A program made the position numbers and the translations under genes. The notes beneath the pieces are model-generated. The model was not told where the DNA came from and searched no databases. It was given only the letters and a program-made list of their open reading frames with translations. A stretch of 64,000 nt of DNA from a virus, in IMG/VR virus record IMGVR_UViG_3300045988_131786, positions 86,055-150,054 of that record; one strand, written 5' to 3'. Each line of letters starts with the position of its first letter. The stretch's first letter is position 1. Shown piece after piece: positions 36,185 to 46,854 of the stretch.

Positions 36185-36484
36185 TCACTCTCCTTTATCA
36201 AAATCAATTTTATTTACTGAGCTGACTTCTTTTCCATACCCAGCTTTTTCATCAAGAGATTTTTTCATTTGATTTAGCATATCTACAAATTCATTAAACT
36301 CCCAATAATCTTGGAAAATAAAACTAATCATATTTGCATCAATTATATCTAATGCATCTTTATGTTCCCGAGAAAATTTACATTTAGCCCAATATCTGTC
36401 TCCATGAATAGGTACTTCTATATTAAAACCCGCATAATCTCTTAATGGATATTTATCAAGGTTAAAAGGCTCATCTACTATCAT
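36185..36484 (-). CDS. Hypothetical protein
   Basis: ORF. Confidence 0.35.
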   Translation of the reverse strand: MIVDEPFNLDKYPLRDYAGFNIEVPIHGDRYWAKCKFSREHKDALDIIDANMISFIFQDYWEFNEFVDMLNQMKKSLDEKAGYGKEVSSVNKIDFDKGE

Positions 36485-37593
36485 AATAAAATCCTTTCTT
36501 TAAATAATGTAAGAAACTTTTCTTTTCCTTCATCTATTGGAGCATCTTTATACCTAGTTATCATTTCTTTGTCGAAAATAAAAGAAATATTTACATAATT
36601 ACTATATTTTGAATGAAGTTTTAAAAGATTCTTTTTAAGATGTTGAAATTCTGCATCTCCTATTTCTTGGAACTGTCTATCAAAAGCTACTATAATTTCT
36701 TCTACACTTGCGCGCAATAGCATTTCTATCTGATAATTAGAAATATTAGAACCACAACAAGCTACTGAAATATCATTATCTATACCAAAATAACTTTTAT
36801 ATTTTAAGCAAGATTTTTCCGATTCAAACACAATTACTTTCCGAATTTTTGAGATATTTTCTTTAATATAATAGTAATTATATAAATTCATTCCAAGAGG
36901 GTGATTATACATTATCTGATTAATTCTAAGTGGTCTATATTTTCCATATAATTCCGCTTCCTCTTTAATCATTGTTCTTCCACGAATTCCTACAAGTCTA
37001 CCAGTTTCATCAACATGCGGAATTGTGATTTGCGCCCCTCCTGGATAATAACCAATACGCATAAAATCTAATACTTCTTGACTTATATCTTCATCAATCC
37101 AAGGCTTTAAAATTACATCATAATTAAATCTGTCTAAGATTTGTTTATTATATTCTTTAAGAGTAATTATTCCTTGCTTTTTTGGTTCAATACTTTCTAT
37201 TCTTTCATATCCAGAAAAGATTTTAAAATCTTCGCTGTTAATTAATTCTTCTTGTTCTTGAACATATTCTCCAGAAAATCCAAAATAAGAAGCAACCCAT
37301 CGAACTGCATCATTTAAGTCAATATCTATATCTTTTTGGATTTTATTAACTTTTCTACACAATTCAAATACATCAAAAAAAGATTCCGCACATCCAGTAT
37401 AACAAATAAATAAACCACTATTTTCATAAAAATAAAGTTTTCTACTTCCTATACCTGGTGGATTATGACATATTGTAGAAGAAATGATGCCGAAGTTTGT
37501 ATACTCCGGCTCACCTCCCCATAATTGAAGTAAAGCAAAAATATGTTCAATTTGTAAATGTTCACGTATTTCTACTTTATCATAATTAATCAT
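36481..37593 (-). CDS. DnaG-like DNA primase (CHC2 zinc finger plus Toprim-like region)
   Basis: CHNPPGIGSRKLYFYENSGLFICYTGC matches the CHC2 zinc-finger pattern. Acidic Toprim-like segment VIVFESEKS. Confidence 0.5.
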   Translation of the reverse strand: MINYDKVEIREHLQIEHIFALLQLWGGEPEYTNFGIISSTICHNPPGIGSRKLYFYENSGLFICYTGCAESFFDVFELCRKVNKIQKDIDIDLNDAVRWVASYFGFSGEYVQEQEELINSEDFKIFSGYERIESIEPKKQGIITLKEYNKQILDRFNYDVILKPWIDEDISQEVLDFMRIGYYPGGAQITIPHVDETGRLVGIRGRTMIKEEAELYGKYRPLRINQIMYNHPLGMNLYNYYYIKENISKIRKVIVFESEKSCLKYKSYFGIDNDISVACCGSNISNYQIEMLLRASVEEIIVAFDRQFQEIGDAEFQHLKKNLLKLHSKYSNYVNISFIFDKEMITRYKDAPIDEGKEKFLTLFKERILL

Positions 37594-37903: not shown

Positions 37904-38411
37904 TTATTCTTCAAATGTCATCATTTTATCATCATCTAAAACATTGATAGAGACATTATCTATTTCTATTATATCATAATTATAAGTTGTAGCAAACATA
38001 GGTTCAATTCTACAAGTTCCTAAATCTGCTTTACAAAATAGGTAAATTCCTTTATACCTTCCTCGTCTATTTTTATATATTGATAATTTAATTGTTGGCG
38101 TATCAAAAGCATTTGTTGCTAAAATACTTTGAAGAGCTTCTAAATCTCTAGTTGTGACGCTAAGTAAAATACTACCATAATCAATTTTATCTGCGATTGA
38201 TTTTGCTCCACGAAGTAAATTCTGGTCAGGTGTTTCTGAATCTTTATAAGTCCCATTTAACTGAGTCGCAGACATAATAAAGATACCATATTGATTACAT
38301 AAATCTTTTAAGCGATTAGATAACATAAAAAGAATATTATCTTCTCTAAGTTTTACCCCACCGGAGCGTTTAGTTATCTCTTCAAGAATCTTTAGGCTAG
38401 TATGTATATAA
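37904..38411 (-). CDS. DnaB-like replicative helicase, exon 2 (C-terminal part). The upstream boundary is approximate.
   Basis: ...LSNRLKDLCNQYGIFIMSATQLNGTYKDSETPDQNLLRGAKSIADKIDYGSILL matches the DnaB region [29 protein letters not shown]...ADLIM. The in-frame extension upstream of the annotated Met (…HDYIHTSLKILEEITKRSGGVKLREDNILFM) continues the DnaB alignment. Confidence 0.6.
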
Positions 38412-39474
38412 TCGTGACGCGAACTTCTTATATTTCTATAAGCGCTGACTATCTCTTACTTAACTAATATAAGTTAAGGAAACCGTTTCGGCATTTAACT
38501 AGCTTCGTTACCTAAAACTAGACTATGTACTAATAATAGCCCTACTTCCCTGCCCAGAAGGCTTAGGGAATAGTCGATACAGGTTCTTTAGACGTTTTTC
38601 CAGGTTCTTTTTTTAATAATGTCTGCAACGGTTGATTTTGATATACCATAATTTTTAGCTAAATTTTCATAAGAAATATTATTTTTTTCTCTATCTTCCC
38701 TAATCTGTTTAACTAATTCAGCATTTAATTTAGTATGTCTTTTTCTAACTTTAAATACTTCTGGCATGATTAAACCATATCTTTTTCCAGACCATATATT
38801 TAAAAAAGAATTAAAATGTAGCCTATCTTTGTATTTCTCATTATATATTTTTGTTGGACTTTCATTATTTAGATAAGCTTTTCTAAGTTCAATAATTTCT
38901 GACTCTGTTAATTTTGCTTGACCCCAAATTTCTTTTTTTCTATGCTCTAAAGTTTTCGGTTTAGAGCAATTTTTCCCACCATCTTCTACATTATAACCAT
39001 TAGGAACTTTAGTATTATAAAAATTAATATAATATATTTCTAATTCATTTAAAATATTTATATCATCAATATCTTTTACCAAAATTTCATATTTAAAGCT
39101 TTCATATCCATATTTTCTAAAAGCTTTATGTAATAAAGAATTATAATCAGAATTATTTGGATTTTTATATGCTGATTTATGTGCTGCATATCTTGCTTTT
39201 GGATTCACAGTTTGTCCAATATATTTTTTATTATTTTTTAAATTTGTATAACAATATATAATTCCCATATGTTATACCTCCTTTCATAATTAATATGAAA
39301 GGAGTCAGAAATTATTTAACTACTTACGTCCAAAGTTTCCCACGGGACTCCCTTATTTTTCAATTTAGGGTCCCCCGTTAGCATACATACCATTGTTTTG
39401 GTGTATGTATACCCCTAGCAGTCACTAGGCAAAGTTTTTCATTGTCCCAACACCCTTTTAATAGGGTTGAACAC
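38412..39474 (-). mobile_element. Group I intron (boundaries approximate) interrupting the DnaB-like helicase gene and carrying a GIY-YIG homing endonuclease ORF
   Basis: The helicase reading frame is broken between the two exons. The intervening DNA contains GC-richer structured segments (agtttcccacggga..cccgttagc ; ctgcccagaaggcttagggaatagtc) that recur at about 90% identity in the second intron at 44080..45158. Confidence 0.6.
38588..39268 (-). CDS. GIY-YIG homing endonuclease (intron-encoded), with a C-terminal helix-turn-helix
   Basis: GIIYCYTNLKNNKKYIGQT...R...H (GIY-x10-YIG); EDGG; C-terminal HTH (ISKSTVADIIKKRTWKN). GGAGG RBS upstream. Confidence 0.8.
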   Translation of the reverse strand: MGIIYCYTNLKNNKKYIGQTVNPKARYAAHKSAYKNPNNSDYNSLLHKAFRKYGYESFKYEILVKDIDDINILNELEIYYINFYNTKVPNGYNVEDGGKNCSKPKTLEHRKKEIWGQAKLTESEIIELRKAYLNNESPTKIYNEKYKDRLHFNSFLNIWSGKRYGLIMPEVFKVRKRHTKLNAELVKQIREDREKNNISYENLAKNYGISKSTVADIIKKRTWKNV

Positions 39475-40509
39475 AAACCTAACATCATGGTCGCGAATAT
39501 TCCGCTTTATTGTATTTTCTATATCCTGCAAATTAAAGTCTGGTAGTTCTTCTACATATAAAGGAGCTTTTGAAAGAATTTCCGCAGCTTTGAGTACTCT
39601 ATCTTCCTCATCACCTTCATATTTACCATTTAAAATATGTTCTTCATTTACATTTGAAAGAAAAGCTAACATCATTGTTTGTATTTCTTCCAATTCCTGC
39701 TCAGTTGTAATAAATAAAGTAGGATTACAAGCCCCTGTACTTATCCAACCAAATGTTTCATTATATATATGACTACAAGCTATATAGCAAGCATCTGCCA
39801 CCATTGACCTTGTCTTGCCAATCCCCGTGGCGGCTGACCGCAAATAAAACTTCTTTAATCTTGCACCACGAGTAACTGTATTAATAAGAGGTCCATATAA
39901 TGGAACACCTACTTCTGGATATTGTTTAAATTTTTCAATTAAATCAAAAACACCTTCGCCCGCTTGCTCACTAGCATTTTGAACATCATCAACATATTGC
40001 ATTCTGATAAGTTCAATTTTATCATTCACTCTACTGGCTATGTCGGTTAAAGAACAATTATCAAGTAGCTCTTCTTGTTCTTGTTTCTTTTTCATATCTA
40101 ATATATTATCTGGATCATATATATCAGATACATCAATCCCAAAATTATCAAATGCTCTTAATAGAGTCATTTTTTTAAGTCGATTATAATAATAATCAAA
40201 AGCTAAAGGGGAAGCACCATCTGAGGCTTTAATTAACCACTCTTCACCTTTTTGCTGCTTATATAAAGCTCCACTAGTTGGATGTGTTTCAAAAAAATCA
40301 GATACAGTTTTTAAATTTACCTCTTTTGCGCCTTGCTCATGAATTTTATATAAAGCCCCAAAAACTATTTTATGAAATTCATTAGAAAAGTCTTCTTCAT
40401 TTATTGTATATCTATCTTTTTCATCTAATAAAGATAAATTTTTAAATACATTTCCTATAACTTGAACTATAGCCGAAACATCTACATATTTACTTGCCAT
40501 TAATATCAA
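39475..40509 (-). CDS. DnaB-like replicative helicase, exon 1 (N-terminal and RecA-like core). The 3' boundary is approximate.
   Basis: Walker A GIGKTRSMVADACYIA; APLYVEE (the DnaB APIYIDD region); ...RDHDVRFVF parallels DnaB RDHGGLSLIMIDY. Confidence 0.65.
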
Positions 40510-41014
40510 CCTCCTCGTCTAAAAAACTAAATTTCTTTTTTGATTTTTTAATTTTTCTTTGTGGCTGAGGGATTGTTATATTAATAGTTTTAGGTATATA
40601 ATTTTCAATATTTACTTCTGAATTTCTCTTATTAACGCTCCACATCTTATAGTAATAATTCTTAGCTTCTTCATATACATATGGAACTATTCCTATTGAA
40701 CGACTAGCTTCATCTTCAATAGCATTACCCTGTACTTCATAAAAATATATTAATGCTTTATGAATACCAGAATATGTAAAGCCTAATTCAGTTACATATT
40801 TTTTAATAAGCAAATTTGTTCTTGCAAAATCATATTTACCATTATATAAAGTATATAAATATTTGTTTAAATTTGCTTTATCAACTTCTGTTTGATTTAT
40901 TGGTCCCTCTGGACATTTTTTATGAGCATATCTTCTTGAACTCACTTGAATAAAAGGAACTTTATCCCTATCAAATTGTCGCCCACAATTAACACATTTA
41001 CAAGGATGTGCCAT
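40490..41014 (-). CDS. Zinc-ribbon protein, hypothetical
   Basis: CKCVNCGRQF...HKKC near the N-terminus. Confidence 0.35.
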   Translation of the reverse strand: MAHPCKCVNCGRQFDRDKVPFIQVSSRRYAHKKCPEGPINQTEVDKANLNKYLYTLYNGKYDFARTNLLIKKYVTELGFTYSGIHKALIYFYEVQGNAIEDEASRSIGIVPYVYEEAKNYYYKMWSVNKRNSEVNIENYIPKTINITIPQPQRKIKKSKKKFSFLDEEVDINGK

Positions 41015-41107: not shown

Positions 41108-42085
41108 TTACAGCAAATCTTCTTTAATTTCAGAAACAATTAAATAAATAATCTCTGCTTGTTCTCTCGTAGCATCAGATACTTTCTTTCCTTTTCCGAG
41201 GTATTTATCTACAATTTCTGTAATTTTTTCGCTGTTTTTTGTATCTCTCTGCATCAGCTCTCCAACTACAGTCTGAAATTCTGCCATAAGGGCATCAAAG
41301 TCATAAGTTGGTGCTTCTGTTTTCTCCATTTTCTCTTCTGTCACAAATTTATTGTCATGCTCTGCGGCTTCCTTATCAATAGCTGCATGAATGGTATCAA
41401 CAAGGGCATTATAATTCATTTCAATACAATCAGGAATATACTTAAAACGACAACCGCACTCAATAAATCCTGTTCTATCTCTTAAAACAAGAATAGAATT
41501 TTCACTACCATTCTGTTTTGCATATCCATAGATATCAGCCATACCACCAATAATTTCTCTTGTGGAATTGGAAAGTGCTGGGCGAATATTTGTTACATTA
41601 CCATTATCGTCTTTTGCTTCCTTATCATGTCCAAGAAAGAAAACTGCATAACCAAGCTGTGTAAGCCCTCTAAATACTTCATTGAATTCGTCTTTAAACT
41701 TAGACCATCCTTTTCCATAACCAAGGTCTCCAAGCTCTTCAATTCCATTTTGCTGACAAATATATTTCTTACATTTATCTGCGGCAACATCAATAGTGTC
41801 AACTACAACTGCTTTATAAACCTCTTTTACTTCTGGCTTTTTAAGTTCTCTATAAACCTGTTTCATCTCGCCCCAAGTTGTAATATCCTGAGCCATTACA
41901 CCAGGAAGAGCATTATATCCTGCCTCAAAAGCTAAAAGCAAAGCCCCTTCCATCTGAGTTGCTAAAGTAGTTTTTCCAGTCTTATATCCGCCATAAAGAT
42001 AGGTTATATACCCGCTGAGGTCTTTACTAACTTTATGTGGTTGAATTCCTAATAAATTAATTCCCATTCTTTTTATCTCCCTCAA
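41108..42085 (-). CDS. Sak4-like (AAA_24 family) RecA-fold ATPase
   Basis: YLYGGYKTGKTTLA Walker A with LLLAFEAG following. Size about 325 aa. Confidence 0.55.
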   Translation of the reverse strand: MREIKRMGINLLGIQPHKVSKDLSGYITYLYGGYKTGKTTLATQMEGALLLAFEAGYNALPGVMAQDITTWGEMKQVYRELKKPEVKEVYKAVVVDTIDVAADKCKKYICQQNGIEELGDLGYGKGWSKFKDEFNEVFRGLTQLGYAVFFLGHDKEAKDDNGNVTNIRPALSNSTREIIGGMADIYGYAKQNGSENSILVLRDRTGFIECGCRFKYIPDCIEMNYNALVDTIHAAIDKEAAEHDNKFVTEEKMEKTEAPTYDFDALMAEFQTVVGELMQRDTKNSEKITEIVDKYLGKGKKVSDATREQAEIIYLIVSEIKEDLL

Positions 42086-43690: not shown

Positions 43691-44079
43691 TTATTCAAAC
43701 AAAAAGTCATCAGCATAAGGCAAATATTTCGCAAATTTAATAAAACTGTCTAATTCTGAATCTATTCCATCAGTTTTACTCCATTCAACAAGTTTATGCC
43801 CTTTTCTTTGCTGAATCATTGTACGAATATTTTCATAACTCATTGTTACTGTGCGAGTTTGGAGCCATGATTCTGGAAGCCAGCACACAAGCTCTTTCCA
43901 GTAACGTTTATCTTTAGTTGCCAGATATTTCTGACGCAAACCCTCAAGAAATTGAATAAGATAATCAATTTCTTCTCCAGAAGTAATAATATCTGGACAA
44001 TAATCTCCTGTTTCAAAGCAATCTAAAGTAATTGGTTTACTTGTAAGTTTATGCATTGTAGATGTAGAATTTGCGGTTG
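43691..44079 (-). CDS. ThyX-fold (FAD-dependent thymidylate synthase-like) protein, exon 2
   Basis: After splicing, the junction reads APLYW|WKEFDTYKIGTTANSTSTMHKL, aligning with ThyX [27 protein letters not shown]. The C-terminal LPESWLQTRTVTMSYENIRTMIQQRKGHKLVEW aligns with ThyX [34 protein letters not shown]. The ThyX sequences are recalled from memory. Confidence 0.55.
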
Positions 44080-45158
44080 TACCGATTTTGTAAGTATCAA
44101 ATTCCTTCCCATTTATGGACTATCTTTTACCCCTTTTGCAATAAAGGAGGATACCATTTCGACATTTAACTAACTTCGTTACCTAAAATTAGACTACGTA
44201 TCAATAGTAGCTCTACTTCCCTGCCCAAAAGGCTTAGGGAATAGTCTCTACAGGTTCTAATTATATTAAATCTTCAATAGTAAAATTTTGGTTATATTTA
44301 ATAATTTTCAATGGAATATTATGCTTTTCACAATATTCTCTTTTTCTCTTATCATTTTCAATAAGATTATCCCATTCTTTTCCCCAACTTCCTTCAGGTC
44401 TTAAATAATGTTGTAATCCATTAAATTCGATAAGACTTTTTAATTCTCCATTAGAAAATATTGCGAAATCGAATCTTAATCTTCTTCCACCAATTCCGTT
44501 TAAATCAGAAAAAGTGTATTGAGTAGAAAATTCATAATTTCCATCAATAAGCATTTTAGTAATTTTCTGTTCTCCTAAAGAATGAAGACATCCACAAGAT
44601 TGTATACCAACAGAACGTATATTGCTTCCTTTTGTTGTAAAAATATTTCCACAATGCTTACAAATACATTTCCAATGAGCAATTCCTTGCGGAGATGAGC
44701 CGTCTCTTTCAAGAACTTTAAAATTATCATCCTCATAACCAGTCATATCAACAACATTTTGAACGGCTTTTTCTTTTTGTAAACACCCGCATGATTGAGT
44801 ATGATTAGAATTAAGATTTCTTGTATCTACGTCTAATTCATTACCACAATCACAAATACAATGCCATTTACCACCTTTTATATAATATTGAGGTGTTAAT
44901 CGACCAAATTTTTTACCTGTTAAATCAACTCTTGGTTTAGATTTTCTTGTTTGTTTTTCCATATTAAATTATCTCCTTACTTTTTATCGTTCTATTATAT
45001 CTAAAAAGTATCCAAGTATAATTTAATAAGTTTGACACGATTTTTTATAATTAGTTTCCCACGGGATTCCAATGGGTGGTTCCCCGTTAGCTATATTTTA
45101 CAAAAATATAACCCTCGCTGATAAGCGAGCAAAGTATTTCATTGGCAGAAAGAATTCT
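44080..45158 (-). mobile_element. Group I intron in the ThyX-like gene, carrying a homing endonuclease ORF
   Basis: Exon 1 ends in U (..tac tgg t|) and the intron ends in G (..aaatg|gg aag), matching group I splice-site rules and restoring the ThyX alignment across the junction. The 5' and 3' structured segments are about 90% identical to the DnaB intron (38412..39474). Confidence 0.65.
44261..44962 (-). CDS. Intron-encoded homing endonuclease-like protein. Its N-terminal half has repeated zinc-ribbon CxxC pairs; its C-terminal domain is Vsr/EDxHD-like.
   Basis: CICDCG...CGCLQKE and CICKHCGN...CGCLHS Cys pairs. C-terminal RLRFDFAIFSNGELKSLIEFNGLQHY resembles very-short-patch-repair / EDxHD-type nuclease motifs. 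Confidence 0.5.
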   Translation of the reverse strand: MEKQTRKSKPRVDLTGKKFGRLTPQYYIKGGKWHCICDCGNELDVDTRNLNSNHTQSCGCLQKEKAVQNVVDMTGYEDDNFKVLERDGSSPQGIAHWKCICKHCGNIFTTKGSNIRSVGIQSCGCLHSLGEQKITKMLIDGNYEFSTQYTFSDLNGIGGRRLRFDFAIFSNGELKSLIEFNGLQHYLRPEGSWGKEWDNLIENDKRKREYCEKHNIPLKIIKYNQNFTIEDLI

Positions 45159-45579
45159 ACCAGTAGAGTGGAGCCGTAATGTCAACTGTTACCATAATTT
45201 GACGTAAAAATTTCCTATGCTCAGGACCTGCTTTAATTAAACGTTTAGCTAAATCCATATCATTTGGACCAATAAAAGCAACATTAGCTATTTGATGGTC
45301 AAAATCAATTTCAAGTAAACCATTTTTAAGTAACCATCTATCATAATCATCTGTTAAATCAGAAGAAGCTTTGCTATAAGTCTCTGGATAATCTGGGTCT
45401 TTGGTCTCTTGAACCCAAGTTTCCGCCACTAAATAATCCTGTTGACTGTCTTCTATATTAATCAAACCAAAAAAACTATCACTCTTATTCCAGCTCTCTA
45501 ATGGATTTCTCATTCCTCTAAGAGCAGGTCCAAAATTATAAGTTTTAATATTTTCAAACTTCATTCTTTTACCTTCCAT
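45159..45579 (-). CDS. ThyX-fold protein, exon 1
   Basis: GPALRGMRNPLESWNKS parallels ThyX GRACYQSWSKPNP. AGPEHRKFLRQIMVTVDITAPLYW parallels [20 protein letters not shown]. Confidence 0.55.
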
Positions 45580-45864: not shown

Positions 45865-46854
45865 TTATTTTATACTATAACCAAAATCTTTGGCATGAAA
45901 ATATTCTTGCCAATAATCTTCACGTTCATTTAATTCTTCTGGTTTTACTTTTTCAATTACTTCAAAAGTAAAATTTTCTGGTCCACTCTCTTGCATTGCT
46001 GGATATAATTTATTGCGGGTTGGCGTTTCTGCGCCTACTCCACGTTTGATATGCTGTCGCCAACGCTCTCGAATATTGACCGCCTGCCCAATATAACATT
46101 TTCCATCTAAAATATTTGTAATTTTATAAATACCTGTAATATCTTTATCTCCAATGACTCTACCAATTAAAGCATTATAAGGTTTTTCATAGTACACTTT
46201 ATAAATTACTTTATTAATAGCATCTGGATAACGAATATTAGAACTTACCTCACGTAGTTTTTTAATTTCTGCAACATCTTGTTCTGATAATTGGAGTCTA
46301 TAAAAATCTTGCTGAGACTCTTTTTCTTCTTCACGTTTTTTAGCTTCAACAGCCGCATCTACAAGAGACTTATATTTTTCTAATTCATTTCGGAATTGAA
46401 GAATTTCATTTTTTTTATTTTTAGAATCTTCATTAAAACCTTTTACAATTTCTTCAACAGATTTTAAATAAGCATCTTTATAAGAACTTCTATCTTCTTC
46501 AAGTTTAGCAGATAATTTTTCTGCTTCTCTATCATAAGTATCATTTAATCCATTAATAAATTCTTGTAACTTCATAGATTCTTTATTATAAGAGTCTTTT
46601 AACTTTGTAATTTCACTCGTATAATTAAAAGATTCTTTAGTCAATGCTCTAAGAGTACCTCTCATTTTAGCTATTTTAGATTCATAATCTTCATTAGTTA
46701 AATTAAGAAATTGTTTATTAGATTCTAATTCTTCAATATCAAATTCTAATAATGATTTAGTTTTCTTTAATTTTGAAATTTGATAAATTTCCAGACAAAT
46801 TATAATCAAACCTAAAATACCTAAGAAAAACATTATTAAATATAATACATTCAT
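45865..46854 (-). CDS. Membrane-anchored coiled-coil protein with a C-terminal GIY-YIG nuclease domain
   Basis: N-terminal transmembrane helix VLYLIMFFLGILGLIIICL; about 180 aa of coiled coil (KLKDSYNKESMKLQEFINGL...); C-terminal GIYKITNILDGKCYIGQAVNIRERWRQH...ENFTFEVIEKV...REDYWQ. Confidence 0.6.
   Translation of the reverse strand: MNVLYLIMFFLGILGLIIICLEIYQISKLKKTKSLLEFDIEELESNKQFLNLTNEDYESKIAKMRGTLRALTKESFNYTSEITKLKDSYNKESMKLQEFINGLNDTYDREAEKLSAKLEEDRSSYKDAYLKSVEEIVKGFNEDSKNKKNEILQFRNELEKYKSLVDAAVEAKKREEEKESQQDFYRLQLSEQDVAEIKKLREVSSNIRYPDAINKVIYKVYYEKPYNALIGRVIGDKDITGIYKITNILDGKCYIGQAVNIRERWRQHIKRGVGAETPTRNKLYPAMQESGPENFTFEVIEKVKPEELNEREDYWQEYFHAKDFGYSIK

Follow-up and report, generated by a model that had tools for sequence, protein, structure and literature searches.

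A predicted DnaB-like helicase gene of a phage interrupted by a very likely self-splicing, Twort-like group I intron with its own GIY-YIG endonuclease gene

Introduction

How can a phage produce a replicative helicase when the two parts of its gene lie in different reading frames with a nuclease gene between them? The question is raised by a 64,000-nucleotide (nt) stretch of viral DNA, referred to here as the window (IMG/VR record IMGVR_UViG_3300045988_131786, positions 86,055 to 150,054), the minus strand of which holds every described feature of the split helicase locus. From the letters alone, an earlier reading (hereafter the sequence-only reading) had proposed that a DnaB-like helicase gene is interrupted there by a roughly 1.06-kb group I intron carrying a GIY-YIG homing endonuclease gene. 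Here, from comparisons with intron-less and intron-bearing homologues and from the fold of the inserted RNA, we conclude that positions 39469..38418 are very probably a mobile, self-splicing group I intron of the phage IA type, Twort-like in character, within the helicase gene.

Results

The N- and C-terminal portions of the helicase are encoded by different open reading frames (ORFs), as the sequence-only reading had stated. The first ORF (39439..40509, 356 amino acids [aa]) contains a DnaB N-terminal domain and a Walker A motif (GIGKT), and its tail reads ...RDHDVRFVF followed by nine intron-encoded codons and a stop. The second (37904..38326, 140 aa) corresponds to the helicase C-terminus; its frame, which had correctly been said to extend upstream of its Met, is open as far as 38455, where it encodes HDYIHTSLKILEEITKRSGGVKLREDNILF and offers no start codon of its own. 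Translation of the helicase likely begins at the ATG at 40500, with GAGGAGG located 9 nt upstream, and not at the TTG at 40509, which is simply where the open frame offers its earliest start. Exon 1 (39470..40500) ends with ...RFV and the TT of a Phe codon, while exon 2 (37904..38417, stop codon included) begins with the T that completes this codon and continues with HDYIHTS, the Walker B region. Excision between T39470 and T38417 takes out 1,052 nt (38418..39469), of which the first base is C and the last is G (the omega-G, 38418), and rebuilds the codon as TTT (tt/c...g/t). The intron enters the Phe codon in front of the Walker B His-Asp-Tyr (FVF/HDY, residues 342-347) after its second base, one codon ahead of the catalytic Walker B aspartate.

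The joined exons encode ...RDHDVRFVF-HDYIHTS... in an uninterrupted frame of 514 aa, in which GIGKT occupies residues 226-230. In Pfam, this spliced product displayed a single DnaB_C match that spans the junction (residues 206-472, 59.8 bits) and a DnaB N-terminal domain match (25.8 bits), and in PHROGs it matched phrog_19, 'DnaB-like replicative helicase' (E = 1e-52). Alignment with the uninterrupted helicase of Enterococcus phage VRE9_3 revealed 40% identity and no gap at the junction. With the N- and C-terminal domains and the Walker A and B motifs all present, the split gene is predicted to encode a DnaB-like replicative helicase.

A scan of IMG/VR with the helicase yielded 65 homologous loci (given L numbers here), about 50 of which are uninterrupted. 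Among the intron-less alleles, L045, L046 and L056 encode proteins that are 98%, 96% and 95% identical to that of the window, respectively. A virtual splice of 200 + 200 nt aligned with L045, whose junction reads ...AGGTTTGTTTTTCACGATTATATACAT..., over 400/400 nt with 0 gaps and 94.8% nt identity, and was also gap-free over 400/400 nt against the intron-less L056, L046 and L091/92. Since the end bases of the insert (C and G) differ from the adjacent exon bases (T and T), the boundaries 39469..38418 are unambiguous. The exon ends in U and the intron in G, and the junction of FVF to HDYIHTS that the sequence-only reading had offered on the strength of these group I rules proved to be exact. The alignment with intron-less dnaB homologues that it had recommended thus defined the insertion site exactly; its size estimate of about 1.06 kb held, with the precise extent being 1,052 nt and not the interval 38412..39474 suggested for searching. 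The Val codon before the site is GTG, which P1 needs, in 7/7 intron-bearing alleles and in 5/32 distinct intron-less alleles (Fisher p = 5e-5), an enrichment that is indicative only, as the lineages are related and phylogeny is uncorrected.

Relatives of the intron were found in both isolated and uncultivated phages. When 20 kb of the window were compared with isolated phages by megablast, no match was obtained, so that this collection does not contain the window phage itself. BLAST against isolated phages identified the endonuclease gene and the 3' non-coding part, with ~76% identity, in Enterococcus phages EF1 and EF5, located between two pieces of the Pol III alpha gene. IMG/VR was scanned with a 14-mer common to the window and EF1 copies (CGACTATTCCCTAA), and BLAST filtering left about 20 true relatives. 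The 16 introns that were analysed comprise the window copy and 15 relatives from IMG/VR and Enterococcus phage EF1: seven distinct introns at the window's helicase site (window, L003, L021, L099, L101, L102 and L109; L105, a near-duplicate of L101, was left out of separate analysis), one at another helicase site (L020), six at three nearby sites in a type II topoisomerase gene, and two in Pol III alpha. An ORF is absent from three members (L020, 283 nt; L031, 324 nt; L004, 369 nt). In 16/16, the base preceding the insert is U and the last base of the insert is G.

The RNA of the window copy is predicted to fold into a group I core, with P3-P8, P4-P6 and the P3/P7 pseudoknot all recognizable. 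P1 (39443..39473) pairs exon UGUU and the first intron C (39473..39469) with the guide GGACA (39447..39443), placing a U·G pair at the splice site, and its loop is extended by a helix ACCCU/AGGGU (39467..39463 / 39456..39452). The 5' strand of P3 (AAACU, 39433..39437) pairs with the 3' strand GGUUU (38480..38484), with all four Watson-Crick types occurring at the second pair, and P3 crosses P7 as a canonical pseudoknot. Between P3 and J3/4 (UAA, 39380..39378), the segment 39381..39429 forms P3.1 (CCUAG/CUAGG, 39429..39414) and P3.2 (39412..39381), two hairpins that covary; the naming is tentative, P3.1 being a recognised optional element (PMC3873408). P4 (CGGGG/UCCCG) and P5 (CCC/GGG) follow at 39343..39377 around a GA/AG internal loop. 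The 5' strands of P6 (GGG, 39341..39339) and P6a (GGACG, 39331..39327) lie within 39327..39341, and their 3' strands (CGUCU of P6a, 38594..38590; CCU of P6, 38583..38581) within 38581..38594, where the P6a strand overlaps the last endonuclease codons and stop. The 5' strand of P7 (GACUA, 38571..38575) pairs with UAGUC (38451..38447); this expected guanosine-binding helix is invariant in 15/15. It is followed by the hairpins P7.1 (38570..38546) and P7.2 (38540..38522) and an optional third one, P7.3 (38521..38499), which together span 38499..38570. The placement of P7.1 and P7.2 between P7 and the 3' strand of P3 would assign the intron to subgroup IA (IA2-like). The P8 hairpin (CUUAACU/AGUUAAG, 38478..38459), J8/7 (UAAGAGA) and the 3' strand of P7 occupy 38447..38478, and the P9 hairpin (CUUAUA-GAAA-UAUAAG, 38442..38427) with the 3' tail to the omega-G completes the intron (38418..38442).

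This structure, read from the sequences, was tested on an alignment (A1) of 15 of the 16 introns from which the P6a loops had been removed. Standard pairs accounted for 94.4% of 749 cells, compared with 36-47% when the partners were slid by 1-3 columns, and 30/51 pairs changed on both sides, compared with 9-13 in the slid controls. On four of five measures, none of 500 shuffles attained the value observed; on the fifth (further pair types), a single one did. Covariation in A1 was found in P3, P5, P6, P7.1, P7.2, the third hairpin after P7.2 and P9; the hairpins of the P7.1-P7.3 region were 100% paired, with 12/14 pairs changing on both sides, and a separate test revealed strong covariation of P6a. 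A U·G pair stands at the splice site in 14/15 rows, the exception being due to a one-column misalignment, and the guide tracks the exon of its host gene, reading GGACA in the window and GGCGU, GGCCG, GGCCU, UGCCG or CGCCC elsewhere. In minimum free energy folds of single homologues, P1 was recovered in 13/16 and P3.1, P3.2 and P8 in essentially all. Every paired element and family-invariant position is intact in the window copy. Other pairings were tried and rejected: alternatives for P3 that use the GC before UAAC, or GGAAACU in P6, displayed no covariation across homologues when inspected by eye, and a pairing of the P7.1 loop with the loop of the third hairpin gave an inconsistent pattern across homologues.

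The 3' half of the intron can be read alongside the Twort orf142 introns, which we take to belong to subgroup IA2 and to be represented by the solved structure PDB 1Y0Q. Intron 2 of Twort orf142, taken from the fetched genome, contains ...GCAACGACUAUUCCGAUAGGAAGUAGGGUCAAGUGACUCGAAAUGGGGAUUACCCUUCUAGGGUAGUGAUAUAGUC..., and the window displays, in the Twort order, CGACUAUUCCC...GGGAAGUAGGG...CGAAACGGUUUCC-P8-...GAUAGUC; the strings CGACUAUUCC, GGAAGUAGGG, CGAAAUGG and GAUAGUC are common to both. From this shared order of motifs it follows that P7, P7.1, P7.2, the P3 3' strand, P8 and J8/7-P7' correspond element by element. Twort and the window family share P7 as GACUA/UAGUC, the location of P7.1 and P7.2 between P7 and the P3 3' strand, a GNRA-type P9 loop and the P4-J4/5-P5 layout. 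They differ on the 5' side, where Twort has P2 ahead of P3 and a P3 that runs straight into J3/4, whereas the window family has no hairpin between P1 and P3 (no P2) and carries P3.1/P3.2 after P3; unlike Twort, it also often has a third hairpin after P7.2 and has its ORF in P6a.

The ORF in the P6a loop (38588..39268, 226 aa) encodes a predicted homing endonuclease with an N-terminal GIY-YIG domain (PF01541, residues 1-93, 28.2 bits against a cut-off of 22.6) and a separate C-terminal DNA-binding module of the helix-turn-helix (HTH) type (HTH_3, residues 189-222, 24.4 bits against a cut-off of 23). A search of the PDB matched the I-TevI catalytic domain (1LN0/1MK0, E = 1.3e-3, 94 residues), with R26, E78 and N90 of the window protein (approximate numbering) aligned with the catalytic R27, E75 and N90 of I-TevI, and in PHROGs the protein falls into homing-endonuclease families (phrog_7168, E = 5e-34). 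With a GGAGG ribosome-binding site 8 nt ahead of its ATG, the gene is complete, just as the sequence-only reading had described it; the G+C-richer flanks noted at the same time are also evident, the non-coding intron flanks having 38% G+C, the endonuclease gene 23% and the whole window 31.5%. The Shine-Dalgarno sequence is buried in an 11-bp hairpin (CUCCUUUCAUA...UAUGAAAGGAG, 39278..39304, z = -3.9), and a hairpin of this kind, formed by different sequences, was found in 6/6 cases tested (the window and five divergent homologues; z from -1.8 to -5.0), which suggests that it probably keeps translation of the endonuclease low. Translation of I-TevI is likewise restrained by an RNA hairpin over its ribosome-binding site. 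A consensus scan for an internal endonuclease promoter or terminator gave no more sites than shuffled sequence, and the stretch from the 5' splice site to the endonuclease ATG had no site on the coding strand. The T4 td intron with I-TevI and the intron in the window are alike in being phage group I introns in DNA-metabolism genes whose P6a loop encodes a GIY-YIG endonuclease with a C-terminal HTH and aligned Arg, Glu and Asn; they differ in host gene, in their low sequence identity and in their peripheral RNA elements, and no zinc-finger linker was detected in the window endonuclease, unlike in I-TevI.

Searches with nhmmer profiles of the RNA family revealed a second member in the window (44110..45158, minus strand, 1,049 nt). 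This intron interrupts a gene of phrog_6721, a group of unknown function (exons 45579..45159 and 44109..43691), at APLYW/WKEF; its P1 is formed by UGGU/A and UGCCA, and it has no P9 hairpin. The spliced product (279 aa) gave one contiguous profile match, and 150 + 150 nt of the joined exons aligned over 300/300 nt without gaps with the intron-less L046 and L056. Its P6a loop carries an ORF of 233 aa (44962..44261) that is not of the GIY-YIG type and matches phrog_559/374, labelled 'HNH endonuclease', of which phrog_559 has been described as Vsr-like (PMC11878797). Directly upstream of this second split gene is an ORF of 329 aa (45865..46854, minus strand) whose GIY-YIG domain, scored by Pfam at 34.2 bits, is C-terminal (residues 241-319); with its N-terminal hydrophobic segment and a long, charged, coiled-coil-like middle part, the protein has an unusual architecture for the GIY-YIG type.

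In isolated phages, the Pol III alpha intron of EF1/EF5 is the closest match, the identity given above covering the endonuclease gene and the 3' core. It is alike in architecture and unannotated, and it differs from the window intron in host gene, in guide sequence and in its ORF, which continues through P7 into P7.1, unlike that of the window. In EF1 (L001, MF001358.1 128173-134852) and EF5, Pol III alpha is annotated as three separate coding sequences, one of them 'hypothetical'. Between the pieces lie an HNH ORF and a 'hypothetical' ORF homologous to the window's GIY-YIG endonuclease; Pol III alpha in these phages appears to contain two introns that are not annotated, the second being the one whose ORF extends through P7. 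The unannotated Lak megaphage records MK250015-MK250028 (Prevotella) contain a match to P7.1-P7.2 at ~75% identity (e.g. MK250020.1 161731-161815), a partial match covering 47% of the 3' probe, suggesting that the intron family may reach these TAG-recoded megaphages. A study of self-splicing introns in Bastillevirinae described numerous IA-like introns in replication genes, with loops that carry endonucleases, and reported partial or one-sided covariance-model matches and a heterogeneous IA2 group (PMC11878797); unlike in the window, no helicase is among the host genes there ('helicase' and 'DnaB' have 0 occurrences). In the literature covered, which was incomplete, no report of a group I intron located in the DnaB-like helicase of a phage came to light.

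Helicase homologues also carry insertions of 0.28-1.16 kb at three or more further sites: just after the Walker A GIGKT (~aa 230; L021, L091, L092 and L103), at ~aa 402 (L097) and at the LLRG motif (~aa 414-421; L003, L020, L090, L094 and L109), with two insertions each in L003, L109 and L021. The LLRG insertion of L003 (site C) is a conventional group I intron by Rfam (Intron_gpI, 61.7 bits). In-frame TAG codons occur at helicase Gln positions, e.g. AIVQVIG, in L102 (4001-5035, 6041-6547) and L109 (3794-4831, 5843-6088), as well as in the endonuclease ORFs of L003, L099, L102 and L109, where L003, L099 and L102 have one at the conserved Gln of YIGQT. Some relatives of the window phage thus appear to read TAG as Gln; in the window, reading through TAG merged no pair of ORF pieces of at least 60 codons.

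The helicase stands in a replication module together with an AAA_24/Sak4-like gene (42085..41108) and a 370-aa ORF without a Pfam match (37593..36481). A 174-aa ORF upstream (41014..40490) extends 11 nt into the helicase gene, across its start codon (40490..40500), which suggests translational coupling in this module.

Discussion

We propose that the helicase and the intron would be transcribed as one pre-mRNA, in which the intron would fold into P1 and the P3-P9 core. An external guanosine bound at P7 would then attack the phosphate after the U of the P1 U·G pair, and the freed 3'-OH of exon 1 would attack after the terminal G; the exons ligated in this way would form the mRNA of the 514-aa helicase. 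In co-infecting relatives, the 226-aa endonuclease is presumed to cut intron-less helicase alleles, and repair would copy the intron into them. By holding translation low, the hairpin over the ribosome-binding site may ensure that ribosomes leave the folding of the ribozyme undisturbed. Catalysis, homing and translational control are in this sense what we infer from the restored frame, the alleles and the conserved RNA.

Several results weigh against this interpretation. At the gathering score, Rfam reported no group I match in the whole window, nor in 38100..39700 at E <= 10, nor in the ORF-less L020 and L004 searched as whole loci. The best score in the family, that of the ORF-less L031 (Intron_gpI, 29.8 bits, E = 1.2e-5 in a 701-nt search), is below the 50-bit gathering cut-off of RF00028, a curated threshold for detection that does not define group I introns biochemically, and its alignment covered P4-P6, P7, P7' and P9 but not P3. 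P7 and most of P4 are invariant, so that covariation is uninformative there, and P3 is merely 5 bp long and separated from J3/4 by two hairpins, a layout absent from the Twort intron. A comparison of near and far exon identity between intron-bearing and intron-less alleles gave no specific signal of co-conversion in the flanking exons; the proximal 200 nt of exon 2 are more conserved in both kinds of homologue alike. Three Twort introns used as controls scored 64-101 bits in Rfam, and the low score of the family is likely caused by its structural difference from Twort around P3. In the window, the miss is further explained by the 680-nt ORF in P6a together with the hairpins between P3 and J3/4. 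The covariance-model check that the sequence-only reading had recommended therefore came back empty, a result we ascribe to the limits of the model and not to a missing core; its proposal of a group I intron gains support from the covarying fold, the family of 16, the Twort motifs and the Rfam match of L031.

The same Rfam result, together with gene calling that reports two separate ORFs and the annotation of the EF1 Pol III alpha pieces as separate coding sequences, could be taken to mean that a free-standing endonuclease gene split the helicase into two separately translated polypeptides that reassemble without splicing, as the products of split nrdA genes reportedly do in some T4-like phages. 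However, exon 2 has neither a start codon nor a ribosome-binding site at the junction, and its first Met is located 30 codons into conserved sequence, so that Walker B (HDY) would be lost. Moreover, some 370 nt of the flanking non-coding sequence show conservation and the covariation of a group I fold, the boundaries obey the U and G rules in 16/16 introns, and the ORF-less L031, L004 and L020 also interrupt genes, which an endonuclease insertion cannot explain; we therefore regard such a split as extremely unlikely. That the element is a group I intron by descent which no longer splices, leaving the helicase a pseudogene in the window phage, would fit the low Rfam score, but is very unlikely given that all paired elements and family-invariant positions are intact, that neither the two exons nor the endonuclease ORF contain a frameshift or a stop, and that no other DnaB-like ORF was seen in the inspected 36.5-48.5 kb of the window.

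An intein might come to mind, as PMC4760082 presents DnaB genes as classic intein hosts; here, however, the exon 1 frame meets a stop after nine codons of the insert, and the endonuclease gene, which has a ribosome-binding site of its own, is read in another frame. Against a group II intron stands the lack of a reverse transcriptase ORF and of an Rfam group II match in the window. Judged on the sequence itself, the intein or group II explanation is refuted, and its probability is negligible.

A self-splicing group I intron has direct consequences for annotation, as the helicase would be one 514-aa protein made from a spliced mRNA and not two fragments with a stray nuclease, and the annotation of relatives should be changed likewise, that of Pol III alpha in the isolated phages EF1/EF5 included. 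The element is of a well-known, textbook kind; what is added is a sub-family that escapes Rfam, its P2-less layout with P3.1/P3.2, and two copies with different nucleases, such that a single genome holds one ribozyme scaffold with two unrelated nucleases. Since the Rfam group I model misses a fairly widespread phage sub-family, screens with covariance models undercount phage introns, and the 16-member alignment could seed a new model. Within one helicase family, homing elements target the catalytic motifs of a replication protein, at Walker A, Walker B and LLRG. We suggest, tentatively, that these introns may represent a structurally distinct and undescribed Twort-like IA branch, undetected by Rfam, without P2, with P3.1/P3.2 and with an optional third hairpin, occupying at least eight sites in gut-associated phages, including TAG-recoded ones and, by the partial match, Lak megaphages. 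The sites of this branch would be spread over no fewer than four gene families (helicase, type II topoisomerase, Pol III alpha and phrog_6721). Its P6a cassettes would be interchangeable, with GIY-YIG in one copy and the phrog_559 nuclease in the other. If such a branch exists, the annotation is at fault for many of the 'split' replication genes of phage metagenomes.

The closest large relatives of the window are the records containing L046/L033 (both IMGVR_UViG_3300045988_135203, 177.7 kb) and L091/L041 (IMGVR_UViG_3300045988_150395). Their helicase site A is free of introns, yet the intron family is present in their type II topoisomerase gene, and L091 has an additional insertion at the helicase Walker A site. 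Intron content varies gene by gene among these near-identical phages.

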